A stretch of 27,698 nt of DNA, taken from the NCBI GenBank assembly GCA_038816475.1, contig JAWBAI010000013.1, forward strand, positions 1-27,698, read 5' to 3'. Each line of letters starts with the position of its first letter. Within the stretch, counting starts at the first letter, position 1. The notes beneath the pieces were generated by a model. It was given only the letters and a program-made list of their open reading frames with translations. It was not told the DNA's origin and ran no database searches. Below, piece by piece: positions 1-7,065 of the stretch. The translations under genes were made by a program, and so were the position numbers. Source of the DNA: Desulfurococcaceae archaeon (GTDB lineage: Archaea > Thermoproteota > Thermoprotei_A > Sulfolobales > Desulfurococcaceae).

Positions 1-3
1 TTG

Positions 4-78
4 CGGGCCCGCCGGGATTTGAACCCGGGTCCTCCGGCTTAGGAGGCCGGCGCCCTCTCCAGGCTAGGCGACGGGCCC
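4..78 (-). tRNA. tRNA-Arg(CCT), intronless
   Basis: Minus-strand cloverleaf: acceptor GGGCCCG/CGGGCCC, anticodon arm CCGGC-CT-CCT-AA-GCCGG, T arm CCGGG-TTCAAAT-CCCGG, discriminator G; CCA not encoded. Confidence 0.97.
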
Positions 79-208: not shown

Positions 209-955
209 TCACTGAGTACTGGCGATCGCGCTGTGCAGATCCAGCGTGTTTCCTAATATAGTATTTCCTAGTATGCATCGCGATACGCTGAACGCTTGTG
301 TAGTGTCCTCTCTGATCCACCTTAGTATTGTTGTTTTTCCTTGTTCTCTCACGGGGTGTTTTAAAACAGATAATGGAATAATCCTCCAGCGCCTTTCCCT
401 AACCGGGTGTTTTACCAACTCTGCGATCAGCGAATTACCTCGCTTGATAACTCTCACTATTACTTTGACTACATGGTGGTGAAAACTGCCTCCCTCCGGC
501 ATGTACTTACCGTACCTAGTAACAGCGTTGAACAGTACTACCTGGTTCGAAGAAGCCACCTTGGATATCAACCCTGTGATTCTAGTTGCTTCATGGTACT
601 TCCGAGGATCCACTGAAACGTAGTTGTAAGGGTAAACTAGGAGAATCAGCGAGTTCCGTACTTGAGATAGTTCCTCGAGAGCCTTAACTGTTTCACTCAA
701 CCTGAATGCTCTAGATACTAGTATGTTTTCAAGATTGCAGTTGAAGATTCTACATAGCTTAACTAGGTACAAGGAGTCTATTCCACCGAACTCTAAGTTG
801 AGCAACACGTAGACCTGATCTTCTCGGCTTCTGTAAGCCATTACGTAGTGCATGATGCTAACTACCGGAGTTGCTTCACCGTAGATCTCGGTGATCCAGT
901 GCTTGCAAAAAGGATCAATGAGCTCATCTATCTGGGTAATACCTGTAAGCTTCAC
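209..955 (-). CDS. Inactivated RecA/RadA-fold protein, PolB2-associated
   Basis: RadA-like motifs TGITQIDELI, ITEIYG, LENILVSRAF, VVLFN, PEGG..HH, IAELVKHP. Walker A is replaced by GEATPVVS (no GKT) and the Walker B region LILLVYP has no Asp. Confidence 0.8.
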   Translation of the reverse strand: MKLTGITQIDELIDPFCKHWITEIYGEATPVVSIMHYVMAYRSREDQVYVLLNLEFGGIDSLYLVKLCRIFNCNLENILVSRAFRLSETVKALEELSQVRNSLILLVYPYNYVSVDPRKYHEATRITGLISKVASSNQVVLFNAVTRYGKYMPEGGSFHHHVVKVIVRVIKRGNSLIAELVKHPVRERRWRIIPLSVLKHPVREQGKTTILRWIREDTTQAFSVSRCILGNTILGNTLDLHSAIASTQ

Positions 956-1002
956 TCACCCCCCTGTAGTACATTGAAGAATTTTATTGATGAGAGGTTG
1001 GT

Positions 1003-1010
1003 GAAAGTAT
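1003..1010 (-). promoter_or_regulatory. Candidate DNA-damage-responsive element ATACTTTC upstream of the RadA-like gene
   Basis: Contains ANTTTC; ends 48 nt before the GTG at 955; AATAAAA TATA-like box at 988-982 follows after a 14-nt gap. Confidence 0.45.
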
Positions 1011-1063
1011 CGGCTTACACGTGCTCACTAACCTATTACCTGAGCTAAACTCCAAAGTACTAA

Positions 1064-1294
1064 CTAGTAGTTCTGGGAACACAGAGTTTTCAATCTTCTA
1101 ACTAAGTGCAAGAAGAAAACCTCCAATGGATCAACCACGCCCACATGCATTGCTATTGAAAGCGTTGTTTCAATGTCTTCGAGAAACTTCTCAACTACAA
1201 GCTTCTCATCTGGGGGCAAGGACTCAGCTGTTCTACGTATTCTTTCAACGTACTCTTTTACCATGCTTCTAAGAGAACTAGTTGTTCTACCCAT
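1064..1294 (-). CDS. Small alpha-helical PolB2-associated protein (arCOG07300-like)
   Basis: 76 aa with N-terminal MGRTxxSxR and C-terminal DPLE, resembling the small proteins encoded beside polB2 in other archaea; purine-rich GGGGGAGA upstream. Confidence 0.7.
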   Translation of the reverse strand: MGRTTSSLRSMVKEYVERIRRTAESLPPDEKLVVEKFLEDIETTLSIAMHVGVVDPLEVFFLHLVRRLKTLCSQNY

Positions 1295-1363
1295 ATCTCC
1301 CCCATTTGGAGAACATTTGTAATTACAGCTAGTTAAGCAGTGGGAGATCCTGTCACCGTGGTT

Positions 1364-1371
1364 ATACTTTC
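1364..1371 (+). promoter_or_regulatory. Candidate DNA-damage-responsive element ATACTTTC upstream of polB2
   Basis: Same 8-mer as 1003-1010(-); ends 48 nt before the TTG at 1419; TAATAA at 1387-1392. Confidence 0.45.
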
Positions 1372-1418
1372 GGAGACGTCTGCAGGTAATAAGGTTTCAT
1401 CTCTAGCTGGAGTTTAGC

Positions 1419-3323
1419 TTGACGAAGTGGCTACTGGATGCCTACACTCAGGAAGACGAAGTTCACCTAGTGATCTACGACGAGGATCAGCGCTCGCTAG
1501 AGGATCACGTTGTAAACCTCTACTTCTACGGCTACATCACTGGTGGTGAACCAGAGAAACTAGCTCGTAGCCTCCTGGAGGCTGATGGAGTTGAAAACGC
1601 GTGGATAGAGACGTGGAGAGCTCCACCATACTACGATTCCCTGATCAAAGTTGTTGTGTTCAAAACCAAGAGCATGCGTATTCTGAAGAGAATTCTAAGT
1701 GAAGCAGTATCAAAGGGGCTGAAAGTTGTTAATACTACTCCGCATCCACTTGTTGAATCACTCTACAGGTTTAACCTAAGACCATTATCAATGGTGAAGC
1801 GTTTCGGAAACAGCCGAGTTGAACTCTACGAGTGGAATCCACTTGATCGGGATCCAGTGGTGGATTACGTTGTAGTAGACCTGGAAAACGGGGTTTTCAC
1901 TGCTAGAACAAGCAAGTCCGTGGAGAGCTTCACAAAACTGGAGGACATGGCATTGTATCTTTCTTCAAGAAGGTTTCACCTAGGCTTTGTAGATCCATAC
2001 GTTTACGTTAAACTAGTTGAAGCTGATCCACGAGTATCAAGCGTGGCTAAGTGGGTAACCGGTGGAGCATTCAATCCAAGCGAGTTCTTCGAGTGGAGTA
2101 GACTTAGCTACACCCCCTTAAGCCTAATGAACAACTTAACGATTGGGAAAGTGTTAACTACGATTGAAGCTCTACTAGCTAGAGACAGAAGAATGATCTC
2201 GGACAGCTACACTGGTAGAGTAGAAAAGTGGAGAAGAATGAGTGAGCTAATGGTCTACGATAGAGGTGGCGTAGTCTACGTACCAAAACCAGGTGTTTAC
2301 TGGAACGTGTGTCAAGTAGACTTTAAGAGCTTGTACCCCAGCATCATGATCAAGTACAACGTATCCGGTGAAACCATCAACAAGCCTAACTGCCGTAACA
2401 CACTTAGATTAAGCTGGACACCGCACAGTGTGTGCTTAGACGAGGAGGGAGTAGTTCCAGCTAGTATAAAAAAGCTGGTTGAGTTGAAAGAACTCTACAG
2501 CGACCTCTACGAGAAAACCCACGACGAGGTCTACGCCTACAGAAAGAGCGCTGTAAAGTGGATCCTGGTTGCAAGCTTCGGGTACCTAGGGTACAGAAAC
2601 AGCCTTTTCGGCTCCGTTATGGCTCACGAAGTTGTTACTAGCACTAGTAGAGAGATCATGAGAAGAGCCAGGCAGATAGCTATGAAAAAAGGGTACAGAG
2701 TTGTTCACGCAATAGTAGACAGCATATTCGTTGAAGGAGTTAAAACACTAGATGAGTGTTTCTGCTTGAAAAACGAGATCGAGAATGCTACTGGGTTTAA
2801 AGCAAAAGTAGAAGCTCACTACGTGTGGTTGTACATACCTAGGAGTCTTAATGGTAGTGAAGCTGTTGCAAACAAGTACTACGGGTTACTATCCAGCGGA
2901 TCCCTGAAGATAAAGGGAGTAATGGCTGTTCGCAGAGATGTTCCACTCCTGATTAAAAGAGCACAGCTAGATGCTATCTCTAAGCTTGCTGAGGCTACAA
3001 CTCCAGCTAGCTTCGAAGAGAAGGTTGTTGAATCACATAGAGTCATAGATAGGTACATTGAGTACTTGAAGAGTGGTGATGTTGAAATTCACGAGCTTAT
3101 AGTAACCAGGCGTAGTCGAACACGTGGCGAGTACAAGAAGCCACCATCCTACATGCACGAAGCGTTTCCACCATACAGATTAGTGTACTCGAGCAGTGGA
3201 CTTATCCCTTTTGAGAAAGCAAACATGAGTAGGGTTGACCTAGACAAGTACGTACAACTCCTGGAAAAAGCACGCAAAGAACTACCTTCATGCTTGCACC
3301 CACATACAGGTTCAAAAGAATGA
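1419..3323 (+). CDS. polB2: Family B DNA polymerase, PolB2/Dpo2 group
   Basis: Motif A DFKSLYPS intact; motif B KWILVASFGYLG; motif C HAIVDS instead of YGDTDS; NKYYG and KIKGV...RRD present; no recognisable exonuclease motifs; 634 aa. Confidence 0.92.
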   Translation: MTKWLLDAYTQEDEVHLVIYDEDQRSLEDHVVNLYFYGYITGGEPEKLARSLLEADGVENAWIETWRAPPYYDSLIKVVVFKTKSMRILKRILSEAVSKGLKVVNTTPHPLVESLYRFNLRPLSMVKRFGNSRVELYEWNPLDRDPVVDYVVVDLENGVFTARTSKSVESFTKLEDMALYLSSRRFHLGFVDPYVYVKLVEADPRVSSVAKWVTGGAFNPSEFFEWSRLSYTPLSLMNNLTIGKVLTTIEALLARDRRMISDSYTGRVEKWRRMSELMVYDRGGVVYVPKPGVYWNVCQVDFKSLYPSIMIKYNVSGETINKPNCRNTLRLSWTPHSVCLDEEGVVPASIKKLVELKELYSDLYEKTHDEVYAYRKSAVKWILVASFGYLGYRNSLFGSVMAHEVVTSTSREIMRRARQIAMKKGYRVVHAIVDSIFVEGVKTLDECFCLKNEIENATGFKAKVEAHYVWLYIPRSLNGSEAVANKYYGLLSSGSLKIKGVMAVRRDVPLLIKRAQLDAISKLAEATTPASFEEKVVESHRVIDRYIEYLKSGDVEIHELIVTRRSRTRGEYKKPPSYMHEAFPPYRLVYSSSGLIPFEKANMSRVDLDKYVQLLEKARKELPSCLHPHTGSKE

Positions 3324-3378: not shown

Positions 3379-3603
3379 CTAATCGATTTCAACAACAATG
3401 TTTTTTGCAATGCTTCTACCAATGGATATCTCAGCTTCACCTACTTGAATAACCAGTGGACCCCTACCTCTGTTGAACACAACTTTCACTCGTGATCCCG
3501 GGAGTACTCCCATTTGATACAGTCTACGCGTCCACGCTTCTCCGTTAACTTCCTTTACTGTTACCACTTTTCCTTCTTCTACTTTGTCCAGTGTTGTAAG
3601 CAC
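3379..3603 (-). CDS. feoA: FeoA-family ferrous iron transport protein
   Basis: RRLYQMGVLPGSRVKV...GPLVIQVG..EISIGRSIAKNIVV signature; 74 aa. Confidence 0.92.
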   Translation of the reverse strand: MLTTLDKVEEGKVVTVKEVNGEAWTRRLYQMGVLPGSRVKVVFNRGRGPLVIQVGEAEISIGRSIAKNIVVEID

Positions 3604-4885: not shown

Positions 4886-4953
4886 TGAGTGGGCGGTCCG
4901 TCTCCCGCTCATTTGCTCCCGGGACTCGGGAGTATTGCGGGAGTCCGGGGCTC
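4886..4953. ncRNA. Candidate structured non-coding RNA, class and strand unresolved
   Basis: About 69% GC by hand count (46/67) in an AT-rich intergenic region; nested stems CTCCCGC/GCGGGAG and TGCTCCCGG/TCGGGAGTA. Confidence 0.5.
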
Positions 4954-4981
4954 TTGGTTGACTTATAGAAACGCTCCTTAT

Positions 4982-6016
4982 TTACTTTACTTCGAGTTCT
5001 GGCATTTTAGAAGCCTTTATGTTTAGAACAGCTTCAGCAATACCGTTTGAATACCTTGCAATTCTCTTTATGCTATCCAGTATCATTGCTACTGTGATCT
5101 TCTCCTTTGGTTCGAGAGGAGCTTCCAGAACTTTTCCATATATTACCTCCTCTATCTCTGTTACAATGTTTTTCACCTTAGCAATAACCTCCTCTGCTTC
5201 TTTTCTGTTGAGAGAGTACAGTGCCGACATGGCTTTCTCGAAAACTTCAATGTCTCCTCGTAGGTAGTTGTATACGTACTCGGGATGCGATAAGCCACCT
5301 ACAGCTACAACTCGCTTTGCTATGTTAACTGCGTGATCTGCTATTCTCTCGAGATTTCTTGCTATAATTCTGTAACTTAGAACTTCAGTTACGTTTGAAA
5401 TCCCTAGCTCGTGTTGAACCTTGATATCCAGTAGTGCAACCGAGAGTTCTCTGACTATCAGGTGGTGAAATCTATCGGCTTCGTCATCTCTTTGAATAAT
5501 CATCTGAGCTATGCTCAAATCACCGTTACTAATCAAGTGCAGTGTATCATTTAGCATACTACTTACAATTAAGTGTAGTCTTCTAATTGCGTTTATCAAC
5601 GGGAGCTCCTGGAGATTCAGTAGGACCTTGAACGTGATTGAACTAGTGGACTCCTCTATAACCTCCATACCAGCGAGCTTCAGTCTTGCAAGGTTTTTAA
5701 TCTCGCTGATCAGGGATGCTAAGTTCGGAGTACTTCTCTCGAAAACCAGCGAGATTATACTGTAACCCGAGATGTATGTTGCTAAGAGTACTCTCAACAA
5801 TTGCATTTTATCAACACCAGAATGCACTTTCAAGGTAGCTTTCAGCTGCGTAGGCTCAGCTGTTGATGGTACTATAACAAGCTTATTACCAAGTTTTTCA
5901 ACAATAACAAAGTCTCCACTCTTCAAACCAGTAGCATCAATCCAGTCCTTGGGTAGTGTAATAATGAAAGATGATGAACCAGTTTTCTGAACACGTCTTC
6001 TTTCCACACTATACAT
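4982..6016 (-). CDS. phoU: AbrB-PhoU family phosphate uptake regulator
   Basis: N-terminal RRVQKTGSSSFIITLPKDW (AbrB-like); PhoU repeats RDDEADR and RNLERIADHA; GGTGA SD favours ATG 6016 over GTG 6028. Confidence 0.9.
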   Translation of the reverse strand: MYSVERRRVQKTGSSSFIITLPKDWIDATGLKSGDFVIVEKLGNKLVIVPSTAEPTQLKATLKVHSGVDKMQLLRVLLATYISGYSIISLVFERSTPNLASLISEIKNLARLKLAGMEVIEESTSSITFKVLLNLQELPLINAIRRLHLIVSSMLNDTLHLISNGDLSIAQMIIQRDDEADRFHHLIVRELSVALLDIKVQHELGISNVTEVLSYRIIARNLERIADHAVNIAKRVVAVGGLSHPEYVYNYLRGDIEVFEKAMSALYSLNRKEAEEVIAKVKNIVTEIEEVIYGKVLEAPLEPKEKITVAMILDSIKRIARYSNGIAEAVLNIKASKMPELEVK

Positions 6017-6163
6017 GAGATCACCCACTTTTTACACATTTAACTCCATACAATCCTTGTATTTTTGAAAATCGCAATTACAGGTATTTATAGTTTATAG
6101 ACTACTATATACTCCTAACCCTGTACGATTAGCGTTGTTAGTAAGAAAAGCAGATGGGTGAAA

Positions 6164-6252
6164 TGGGCCCGCGGGGATTTGAACCCCGGACCTCCGCCTT
6201 TCTCAGTTTGAGCTTGTAAGGGCGGCGTCCTACCAGGCTAGACGACGGGCCC
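6164..6252 (-). tRNA. tRNA-Val(TAC) with 15-nt intron (6200-6214) at 37/38
   Basis: CCGCC-CT-TAC-A|A-GGCGG; BHB central helix CUUA/UGAG; T arm CGGGG-TTCAAAT-CCCCG. Confidence 0.95.
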
Positions 6253-6332
6253 CAATGCTCTCAAAACATCTAATTGTGGTTTAAAAGTTTAAAACAATTA
6301 GTGAGCACAAGCACGTGTTAGAACAGAAGCAG

Positions 6333-6468
6333 TGGGCCCGGGGGGATTTGAACCCCCGACCTACGGGTCGCACCCCTTTCCAGACCTCTTTCATCCCTCT
6401 GGGGGTCAACCGACCCATAGTGTACACGGTCTGGAGCCCGCCGCTCTGCCTGGCTGAGCTACGGGCCC
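6333..6468 (-). tRNA. tRNA-Trp(CCA) with 62-nt intron (6369-6430) at 37/38
   Basis: GCGGG-CT-CCA-G|A-CCCGT; acceptor GGGCCCG/CGGGCCC; relaxed BHB CUCC/GGUG. Confidence 0.95.
6369..6430 (-). ncRNA. tRNA-Trp intron with partial box C/D guide architecture
   Basis: Guide CTATGGGTCG, D' TTGA, C' GGATGA, second guide GGTCTGGA; both guides are complementary to the host tRNA. Confidence 0.6.
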
Positions 6469-6570
6469 ACTGCCGGGTACACGACTCCAATAACTAGTTT
6501 TATAAAGGTATTAAAAACTTTTAACTTTAATTAGCTAGGGGGCCTGCTTAGCTGAGTGGTGTAGGAAGGT

Positions 6571-7065
6571 TTGAAATATCCACTAGATAAAATATGTATA
6601 AAGAGCGGAGTGTATTGTTCTTCATGCCAGAGAAAAATAGATTCTGGAGAAGTAACAAGCGATGACATAGAAGTACTCAAGGCTCTCATAGAGTTGGAGG
6701 ATAAGCTGAAGTTCATGAAGAAAGGAGAGTTCATAAAAGCTGTAAACCTCAAGGACAAGTCTATAGTGTTCGTAAGAAACGAGTTCACAGTTGAGGAGAA
6801 GAAGCAGCTTGAAGAAGAGCTTTCATCCCTACTTGGTAAAAAAGTAAGAGTAGTTGAATACATAGGTGATTTAAAGAAGCTAATAGAGCAAATACTGTAC
6901 CCGGCAACACTATATGGAGTAAACAGAGTGTGGATACCCGGTGGCTCCGAAATAATAAACATAAGAGTATCCAGAAGAGATAAAAAGTTCATCAAAGACA
7001 AGGAAGAGTACGAAGAACTCATCGCTAAGATATTCAATACTCAAGTCAAAATAGTTTTTGAGTAA
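6571..7065 (+). CDS. NusA-like KH-domain protein with N-terminal Cys cluster
   Basis: ICIKSGVYCSSC, LGKKVRVVEY, GVNRVWIPGG, typical of the archaeal NusA paralogue. Confidence 0.75.
   Translation: MKYPLDKICIKSGVYCSSCQRKIDSGEVTSDDIEVLKALIELEDKLKFMKKGEFIKAVNLKDKSIVFVRNEFTVEEKKQLEEELSSLLGKKVRVVEYIGDLKKLIEQILYPATLYGVNRVWIPGGSEIINIRVSRRDKKFIKDKEEYEELIAKIFNTQVKIVFE

Follow-up and report, generated by a model that had tools for sequence, protein, structure and literature searches.

The 27,698-nucleotide (nt) stretch analysed here (the window; contig JAWBAI010000013.1, assembly GCA_038816475.1) comes from a Desulfurococcaceae archaeon and carries near its start three open reading frames (ORFs), which encode a family-B DNA polymerase (PolB2), a small protein (PPB2) and a RadA-like protein (iRadA). 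The gene polB2 is divergent from the pair PPB2-iRadA; polB2 and PPB2 share a divergent region of 124 base pairs (bp), and a gap of 108 bp separates PPB2 from iRadA. The features of the cassette are as follows (aa, amino acids; PIP, PCNA-interacting protein).

209-955, minus strand: iRadA, 248 aa, GTG start, a RadA/Rad51 ATPase core that has neither an N-terminal domain nor a P-loop.
314-337, minus strand: putative PIP-like (PCNA-binding-like) motif KTTILRWI, iRadA residues 207-214, placed by alignment.
991-1012, minus strand: damage-responsive-element-like site in the iRadA promoter, with an ACTTTC core at 1003-1008, 53 nt before the GTG start.
1064-1294, minus strand: PPB2 (arCOG07300 family), 76 aa, with the N-terminal arm MGRTTSSLR (R3 and R9), from ORF, alignment and model.
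1362-1383, plus strand: damage-responsive-element-like site in the polB2 promoter, with an ACTTTC core at 1366-1371, 53 nt before the TTG start.
1419-3323, plus strand: PolB2 (Dpo2-type family-B polymerase), 634 aa, TTG start, from ORF, PF00136 and alignments.
2208-2264, plus strand: PolB2 residues 264-282, a loop predicted to dock on iRadA (264, 266-275, 277-278) followed by D281-R282, from complex prediction and alignment.
2706-2723, plus strand: PolC motif HAIVDS, PolB2 residues 430-435, of the HxxxD type, in which the first Asp of DxD is replaced by Ile.

The three ORFs, including the MGRT start of the small protein, lie where the original prediction had placed them, and its reading of motif C of the polymerase as HAIVDS is confirmed. 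The original prediction had also held that the association of these genes is not new, which agrees with the literature: Makarova 2014 (PMC4104785) reported that PolB2 genes are linked to those of arCOG07300 and of inactivated RadA and suggested a complex for the damage response, and Timinskas 2025 (PMC11791011) named the partners PPB2 and iRadA and modelled the "PolB2 mutasome" as 40 diverse heteropentamers, each composed of one PolB2, three PPB2 and one iRadA. We have hardly any doubt that the three genes are an intact, ordinary copy, in Desulfurococcaceae, of this published PolB2-PPB2-iRadA cassette. The cassette is thus a rediscovery and no new kind of system; the additions made here are modest: promoters of the DNA-damage-responsive-element (DDRE) type, which a TFB3-like gene has too; a genome in which no Y-family polymerase was found; and a PPB2 gene that flips its orientation.

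A synteny scan of one genome per species gave 21 loci with a relative of iRadA, all from Desulfurococcaceae-type metagenome-assembled genomes and their kin. PPB2 adjoins iRadA in every one of them (21/21, truncated in locus L020) and PolB2 adjoins in 18 of the 21, being cut by a contig end in two of these 18, so the trio is not a chance grouping. Among the 151 genomes of the order, a PPB2 match (E ≤0.01) is present in 57, and hand comparison of the tables finds iRadA and PPB2 together in 44 of the 47 iRadA-positive genomes. Three gene orders occur: polB2 divergent from PPB2-iRadA (the window and seven loci), PPB2-polB2 divergent from iRadA (eight loci), and iRadA-PPB2-polB2 co-directional (three complete and three incomplete loci). 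The PPB2 gene flips its orientation among close relatives, and polB2 and iRadA are divergent in the first two orders alike. The genes of the published mutasome share one orientation "in most cases" (PMC11791011), whereas in the window polB2 is divergent and iRadA has its own promoter; this divergent order may already be contained in the supplementary operon tables of that paper. Two kinds of incomplete locus were also seen. L020 holds a decayed cassette at 4941-6774, with PolB2 fragments of 82 and 61 aa and a PPB2 truncated to 60 aa, and the near-duplicates L018 and L021 hold an iRadA-PPB2 pair with no polB2 beside it (polB2 elsewhere in those genomes was not searched for).

iRadA has no Pfam or NCBIfam match, and a sequence search of the PDB with it returned only chance matches (E above 1). 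Its 29 homologues are 211-273 aa long and give, with the window copy, an alignment of 30 sequences, from which a model with a predicted local distance difference test (pLDDT) score of 80.3 was obtained. The fold of this model begins at residue 7, directly at the ATPase core, and comparison with the PDB by Foldseek retrieves RAD51/RadA cores (E 3.2e-11, probability 1.00, template-modelling score 0.6-0.67). The Walker A pattern G....GK[ST] is found in none of the 30 aligned sequences, and at the place where Walker B would be expected from RadA, iRadA reads LILLVYPY, in which there is no acidic residue. The protein had been described as a RecA-fold protein lacking Walker A, and both parts of that description hold. 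Past residue ~215 the tail is variable and modelled with low confidence. In this tail, the window copy has a 15-nt tandem duplication (245-274, minus strand) through which ILGNT occurs twice; the iRadA of L001 (P0001, 96% identical, 243 aa) is without one ILGNT copy, and some DNA contigs from two hot-spring runs have a 1-nt deletion at window position 255, also in the tail.

The PIP-like motif closes the conserved part of iRadA. Its W213 is nearly invariant among the homologues, of which 15 out of 30 have the strict form Q..[ILMV]..[FWY] at this place and 26 out of 30 a looser form, while the last 60 residues of PolB2 contain the strict clamp motif in 0 of 17 sequences. Clamp-binding motifs are reported for a fraction of the members, more often in iRadA than in PolB2, and the clamp motif is described as "shuttling" (PMC11791011); the putative motif of the window agrees with that description, and the distribution, a putative clamp-type motif in iRadA and none at the end of PolB2, is the same as in the published mutasome.

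PPB2 likewise has no significant match in Pfam or NCBIfam. A word-based homologue search gave only two relatives, and the sequences for its alignment were therefore drawn from the related loci. All 19 resulting sequences have G2 and R3, while M1, L8 and R9 are conserved in at least 90%. The model (pLDDT 89.9) is all-helical, with four helices; Foldseek finds nothing in the PDB at E below 1, and VIA-align yields generic helical matches only (Z ≤6.1). The VIA-align rows include the extracytoplasmic-function (ECF) sigma-factor chains 5zx2_F (Z 4.7) and 1h3l_B (Z 4.4) amid many unrelated rows, and the likeness of PPB2 to sigma factors that is reported in PMC11791011 is neither confirmed nor excluded by this fold comparison.

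The association of the three products was modelled from PolB2, one copy of PPB2 and residues 1-216 of iRadA, each with its own alignment and with iRadA as the scored chain. The interface score ipSAE is 0.72 (0.66, 0.72 and 0.73 in the individual runs), and the best of three controls reaches 0.00. The mark set for this score was attained by 116 of the 157 complexes of solved structure and by 2 of the 215 mismatched pairs. The runs share at least 76% of their contacts and the partner pLDDT is at least 78. Residues 264, 266-275 and 277-278 of PolB2 are predicted to contact residues 49, 55, 59-65 and 75-95 of iRadA, and the predicted contact residues of PPB2 are 4-6, 10-11, 14 and 54-56, of which 4-6, 10-11 and 14 touch iRadA. 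The prediction supports binding without showing it. Directly after the PolB2 loop, all 17 aligned PolB2 sequences have D281, G283 and G284, and 16 have R282 (DRGG in 16, DCGG in one). The published models describe a D(K/R) motif in a PolB2 loop ahead of motif A, an MGRT arm with Arg3 and Arg9 in PPB2, and a PolB2 loop that binds iRadA in the way RadA subunits bind each other (PMC11791011). The predicted interface of PolB2 loop, iRadA and PPB2 is this same architecture, and the window further shares with the published operon the three families, the HxxxD motif, the D(K/R) motif, the MGRT arm with both arginines and the RadA core devoid of N-terminal domain and P-loop. That the three products form one damage-tolerance complex, as originally suggested, is therefore supported by synteny, by these hallmarks, by a predicted interface that scores well above its controls and by the damage-element-like promoters described below.

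A complex of this composition might act in recombination rather than in lesion bypass, with iRadA bringing PolB2 to RadA filaments or D-loops to extend invading strands. The RadA fold of the partner fits this proposal, and the best structural matches of iRadA include filament-capping complexes of RAD51 paralogues. However, iRadA starts at the ATPase core and is without the N-terminal domain and the linker motif for joining a filament, and in the model the groove that would receive a neighbour's motif is occupied by PolB2. PolB2 together with active RadA is reported to have been modelled poorly, with a score of 0.28 (PMC11791011), and the window contains no radA gene. We consider the recombination role very unlikely.

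The polymerase itself matches Pfam DNA_pol_B (PF00136, E 3.4e-22), and its matches to the NCBIfam type-B polymerase models fall below the model cut-offs; among solved archaeal PolB structures the best match is 5mdn_A (E 3.8e-24). It was aligned with PolB1 and PolB3 of the same genome and, separately, with 16 relatives, giving 17 PolB2 sequences. Motif A is intact as DFKSLYP (residues 301-307), and a variant of this motif is found in 17/17. The PolC pattern H.[IL][IV]DS is likewise present in 17/17, and the second PolC Asp and motif A are invariant throughout. Motif B reads KWILVASFGY, with KW[IV]LVASFGY in all 17 sequences. The residues of Exo II and Exo III are replaced, and the exonuclease region is much shorter than in PolB1 and PolB3 of the genome. 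The earlier statement that exonuclease motifs are missing stands for Exo II and Exo III but not to the letter for Exo I, at whose place the window copy has D-L-E; this Asp is unconserved among the 17 aligned sequences, so the statement holds in substance.

HxxxD has been named as the PolB2 signature, and Dpo2 of Sulfolobus islandicus and S. solfataricus, which also has HxxxD, is described as active, without proofreading and able to extend mismatches and lesion-opposed ends (PMC8764526). Dpo2 of Sulfolobus is moreover damage-inducible (PMC7390963). On the motifs, the PolB2 of the window appears to be a family-B polymerase that has lost proofreading and has the PolB2-type HxxxD catalytic motif, and polymerase activity would be expected by homology with Dpo2.

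The opposite view, that the polymerase is catalytically dead and that the trio is structural or regulatory, for example at stalled forks or in the control of origins or replication, corresponds to the first, "inactivated" reading of PolB2. It can draw on the replacement of the first Asp of DxD, of the Asn of motif B and of the exonuclease residues, and such roles, together with a link to orc genes, are discussed in Makarova 2014 (PMC4104785). Against it, all 17 sequences retain motif A and the second PolC Asp without change, and the palm motifs are strongly conserved, which speaks for catalysis; Dpo2 of Sulfolobus, likewise with HxxxD, is reported to be as active as Dpo1 in primer extension (PMC8764526), and no orc gene is present in the window. 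A dead polymerase is in our judgement very unlikely.

Both promoters of the cassette contain a candidate damage-responsive element. In the polB2 promoter the site lies within the 124-bp divergent region and is followed by a TATA-like TAATAAG at 1387-1393; in the iRadA promoter it lies within the 108-bp gap, and an A/T-rich, TATA-like stretch at 981-991 comes after the ACTTTC core. The intergenic DNA of the relatives cannot be aligned except for one element, ACTTTC or AGTTTC in a longer conserved context, after which a TATA-like box occurs 12-14 nt later. In S. islandicus the damage-responsive element is ANTTTC within a 20-bp consensus, is bound by Orc1-2 and is required for induction by 4-nitroquinoline 1-oxide (NQO); the induction of dpo2 there depends on Orc1-2, and the element lies in the range -23 to -55 (PMC6061795). 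The polB2 site of the window agrees with 15 of the 20 positions of the S. islandicus consensus and is among the best 25 of the 2155 ANTTTC sites of the genome, and the iRadA site agrees with 14 of the 20 and is among the best 87. A sense-orientation ANTTTC at -100 to -30 is found upstream of iRadA in 18 of 22 loci and upstream of PolB2 in 11 of 19; of the other ORFs of the same loci, 8 out of 101 have it. These counts include the window and some near-duplicates (window/L001/L002, L004/L007, L011/L014 and L018/L021).

A position weight matrix (PWM) was built from 22 sites of relatives, with the window, L001 and L002 left out, and scanned over the 1.15-megabase genome. The top scores are 25.6, 22.3, 22.1, 20.4 and 17.4, and the iRadA promoter site, at 22.1, is the third best in the genome. 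Four sites score at least 20, compared with at most two in 20 column-shuffled PWM controls, and only this top end stands out. The site scoring 22.3 (G000:C3:79618-79639, plus strand) lies 55 nt before the gene for a 214-aa TFB paralogue (L025:1078-1722), which has the TFIIB zinc ribbon (PF08271, 32.6 bits) and no cyclin domains and is for this reason called TFB3-like here. The TFB3-like gene is matched in 37 of the 41 genomes of the family, and the extended element is present at -100 to -30 in 27 of 29 cases (from the 30 best loci, one of which had no ORF hit); congeners without the cassette are among those with the element. In Desulfurococcaceae, polB2, iRadA and the TFB3-like gene thus all appear, from motif and position, to keep the Orc1-2 damage element of Sulfolobus upstream at a constant spacing. 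We found no published report of the element outside the model Sulfolobales, which is a weak claim of absence.

Apart from these genes, the site scoring 20.4 (G000:C4:81160-81181, plus strand) is located 53 nt before the gene for a 388-aa protein (L026:2218-3384) with a pilin-like hydrophobic N-terminus and no Pfam match, which could be a surface or DNA-exchange component of a damage regulon. The site scoring 25.6 is flanked by an MCM gene and an 85-aa zinc-ribbon ORF, and a TATA-like box comes after it; the site may belong to the promoter of a small RNA, of a tiny ORF or of a transcript with a long leader.

Two Orc1/Cdc6 genes are present in the genome. The first is Orc1-1-like (2qby_A, 1.6e-123). 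The second has its best PDB matches to 1fnn (1.2e-61) and to Aeropyrum pernix ORC2 (1w5s, 3.4e-47), the latter being called an Orc1-2 homologue in PMC12490963, and is placed in the Orc1-2 cluster because these are its nearest matches. This Orc1-2-like gene (L029:568-1830, contig C1 of the genome) has no strong element at the usual place. Its longest ORF contains an AGTTTC among the opening codons, and an in-frame TTG occurs 55 nt downstream, at the point from which the PDB homologues align. Translation may therefore start at this TTG and the gene may be autoregulated like S. islandicus orc1-2; only with this start would the AGTTTC have the usual spacing, and the choice of start is post hoc.

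The cassette resembles the Dpo2 and Orc1-2 regulon of Sulfolobus and Saccharolobus, with the same polymerase type, ANTTTC embedded in a comparable 20-bp context and comparably spaced from the start codon, and both a TFB3-like gene with the element and an Orc1-2-cluster paralogue. A difference lies in the Y-family polymerases. Sulfolobaceae also have the Y-family enzyme Dpo4, whereas PF00817 was not found in the window genome (92% complete) or in any of the 132 other genomes outside that family (18 of the 151 genomes of the order have it, these being the 18 of 18 genomes of that one family, and control genomes behaved as expected). By hand count, 39 of the 47 iRadA-positive genomes lie outside that family and combine the PolB2 cassette with the lack of a Y-family enzyme. 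The role described for Dpo2 in Sulfolobus is that of an extender, possibly in partnership with Dpo4 (PMC8764526), and a switch between Dpo4 and Dpo2 at abasic sites has been described (PMC8721586). Where there is no Y-family polymerase, either another enzyme or the PolB2 holoenzyme itself would have to insert opposite lesions.

The trio had also been compared originally with ImuA-ImuB-DnaE2, which likewise joins an error-prone polymerase to a RecA-family protein. This comparison stands as an analogy only: the bacterial mutasomes have a Y- or C-family polymerase, other small subunits and LexA as regulator, whereas the catalytic subunit in the window belongs to family B, and the genome has no PF00817 (DnaE2 was not searched for). 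The analogies drawn in the literature are to Pol V and Pol zeta. With Pol V of Escherichia coli (UmuD'2C-RecA) the cassette would share the principle of a damage-induced, error-prone polymerase combined with a RecA-family protein and a small subunit (PMC11791011). The eukaryotic Pol zeta (Rev3-Rev7-Pol31-Pol32) is a multisubunit extender of family B without proofreading that accounts for damage-induced mutagenesis (PMC8764526, PMC11791011), but its accessory subunits are unrelated to those of the window and it has no RadA-like partner.

We propose the following mechanism. The loop just before D281-R282 of PolB2 would dock on iRadA by mimicking the binding between RadA subunits, iRadA itself being presumably a RadA core unable to bind ATP or to polymerise. 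PPB2, probably as a trimer, would insert its MGRT arm between PolB2 and iRadA, and the complex may be held at PCNA through the PIP-like motif of iRadA. Judged from the homology with Sulfolobus Dpo2, this assembly would extend mismatched or lesion-opposed primer ends at the cost of mutations. polB2 and iRadA would each be expressed from their own promoter with an Orc1-2-type element, and the Orc1-2-cluster paralogue of the genome would activate both after DNA damage; this paralogue is the expected switch because both promoters hold such an element 53 nt before the start. A damage-induced, error-prone extension by the three-protein complex is, on the whole, the probable function.

The surroundings of the cassette are unremarkable in gene content. 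A further feature lies on its iRadA side:

3-78, minus strand: tRNA-Arg(CCT) gene.

Downstream of polB2 are feoA (3379-3603), a DtxR-type repressor gene and phoU, and then genes for translation, the ribosome and tRNA processing. No orc, SRAP, DUF72, radA, integrase or other mobile-element gene is present among the 26 neighbouring ORFs of the window, and in the lack of a nearby orc1/cdc6, SRAP or DUF72 gene the window differs from the published mutasome. In the congener G103, which has no cassette, feoB and a membrane-protein gene occupy the stretch from tRNA-Arg(CCT) to feoA; the G148 cassette stands beside the homologue of that membrane protein, on a contig other than that of feoA. In the window genome feoA is an orphan, with feoB on contig C6. 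Since the tRNA-Arg-feoA interval differs among congeners, the cassette appears to sit in a rearranged spot, which fits its patchy distribution. That it is a decaying or silent remnant, or mobile-element cargo, with no present function in this organism could be argued from this patchiness, which extends within the genus, from its place beside a tRNA-Arg gene where a congener holds other genes and from the broken copy in L020, but it is highly improbable given three full-length open frames with the invariant residues of their families, neighbouring ORFs that are housekeeping genes with no integrase or mobile-element gene among them, and promoter elements that are conserved while the intergenic sequence around them is not.

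Several observations weigh against the reading of the locus as a damage-switched PolB2 mutasome. Within the proteins, motif B KWILVASFGY stands against KILANATYGY of the genome's own PolB3, so that Asn is replaced by Val; in the same alignment the KKRY region of PolB2 is ANKYY; and the PIP-like motif of the window iRadA has Lys where the canonical motif and most homologues, and likewise the published mutasome, have Gln. The complex prediction, with own alignments, three chains and a single PPB2 copy, is unlike the jobs on which the ipSAE score was calibrated; an interface of the RadA-RadA type is, moreover, common among solved structures, and part of the pass may be memory. At the promoters, PPB2 has no sense-orientation element in the window and has one in only 1 of 22 loci overall, the polB2 site has a PWM score of only 14.9, and the best site of the genome (25.6; G000:C6:60285-60306, minus strand; L027 ~2286-2307) has no ORF of at least 40 aa starting within ~150 nt. 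The numbers of PWM hits scoring at least 10, 12 and 14 (91, 37 and 13) fall within the ranges of the shuffled PWMs (47-136, 19-55 and 4-24), and because these moderate hits do not exceed the controls, no genome-wide regulon is claimed beyond the few top sites. Contigs of the metatranscriptome X20 overlap parts of iRadA and polB2; they come from a relative (90-95% alike) and may include DNA. Run X19, guessed to be RNA, also has contigs covering parts of both genes, and as the contigs of neither run show transcript starts, ends or levels, no conclusion on expression is drawn, nor is any drawn from the PPB2 stretch, which they leave uncovered. The cassette is also patchy, with iRadA in 47 of the 151 genomes of the order and the cassette in one of the four other genomes of the genus, and is therefore dispensable. 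Finally, nothing presented here is experimental, and for this family the complex has only been modelled. The original prediction had noted that the accessory proteins are largely without experiments, and this still appears to be so: a search of sources outside the subscription journals found no experimental work on them, and a review of February 2026 (PMC13324097) still calls for experimental verification of the complex.

Taking these points together with the unlikely rivals discussed above, we put the probability at roughly 85% that the whole is best explained as a PolB2 mutasome cassette, that is, a damage-tolerance polymerase complex with damage-switched promoters. A bolder view, which we regard as tentative and on balance doubtful, is that in Desulfurococcaceae and most other families of the order, which are without a Y-family polymerase, PolB2-PPB2-iRadA would be the sole dedicated translesion polymerase, both inserting and extending rather than serving only as the extender that comes after Dpo4 in Sulfolobus, within an Orc1-2/DDRE regulon that reaches beyond Sulfolobaceae, with separate damage-responsive promoters for polB2 and iRadA and a TFB3-like protein as second-tier regulator.

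For the biology of the family, the conserved element makes testable a question raised in PMC6061795, namely whether the Orc1-2 damage response exists outside the model Sulfolobales. The carriers of the cassette that are without a Y-family polymerase would in turn be naturally suited to asking whether the PolB2 holoenzyme is able to bypass lesions alone, and what iRadA and PPB2 add to it.

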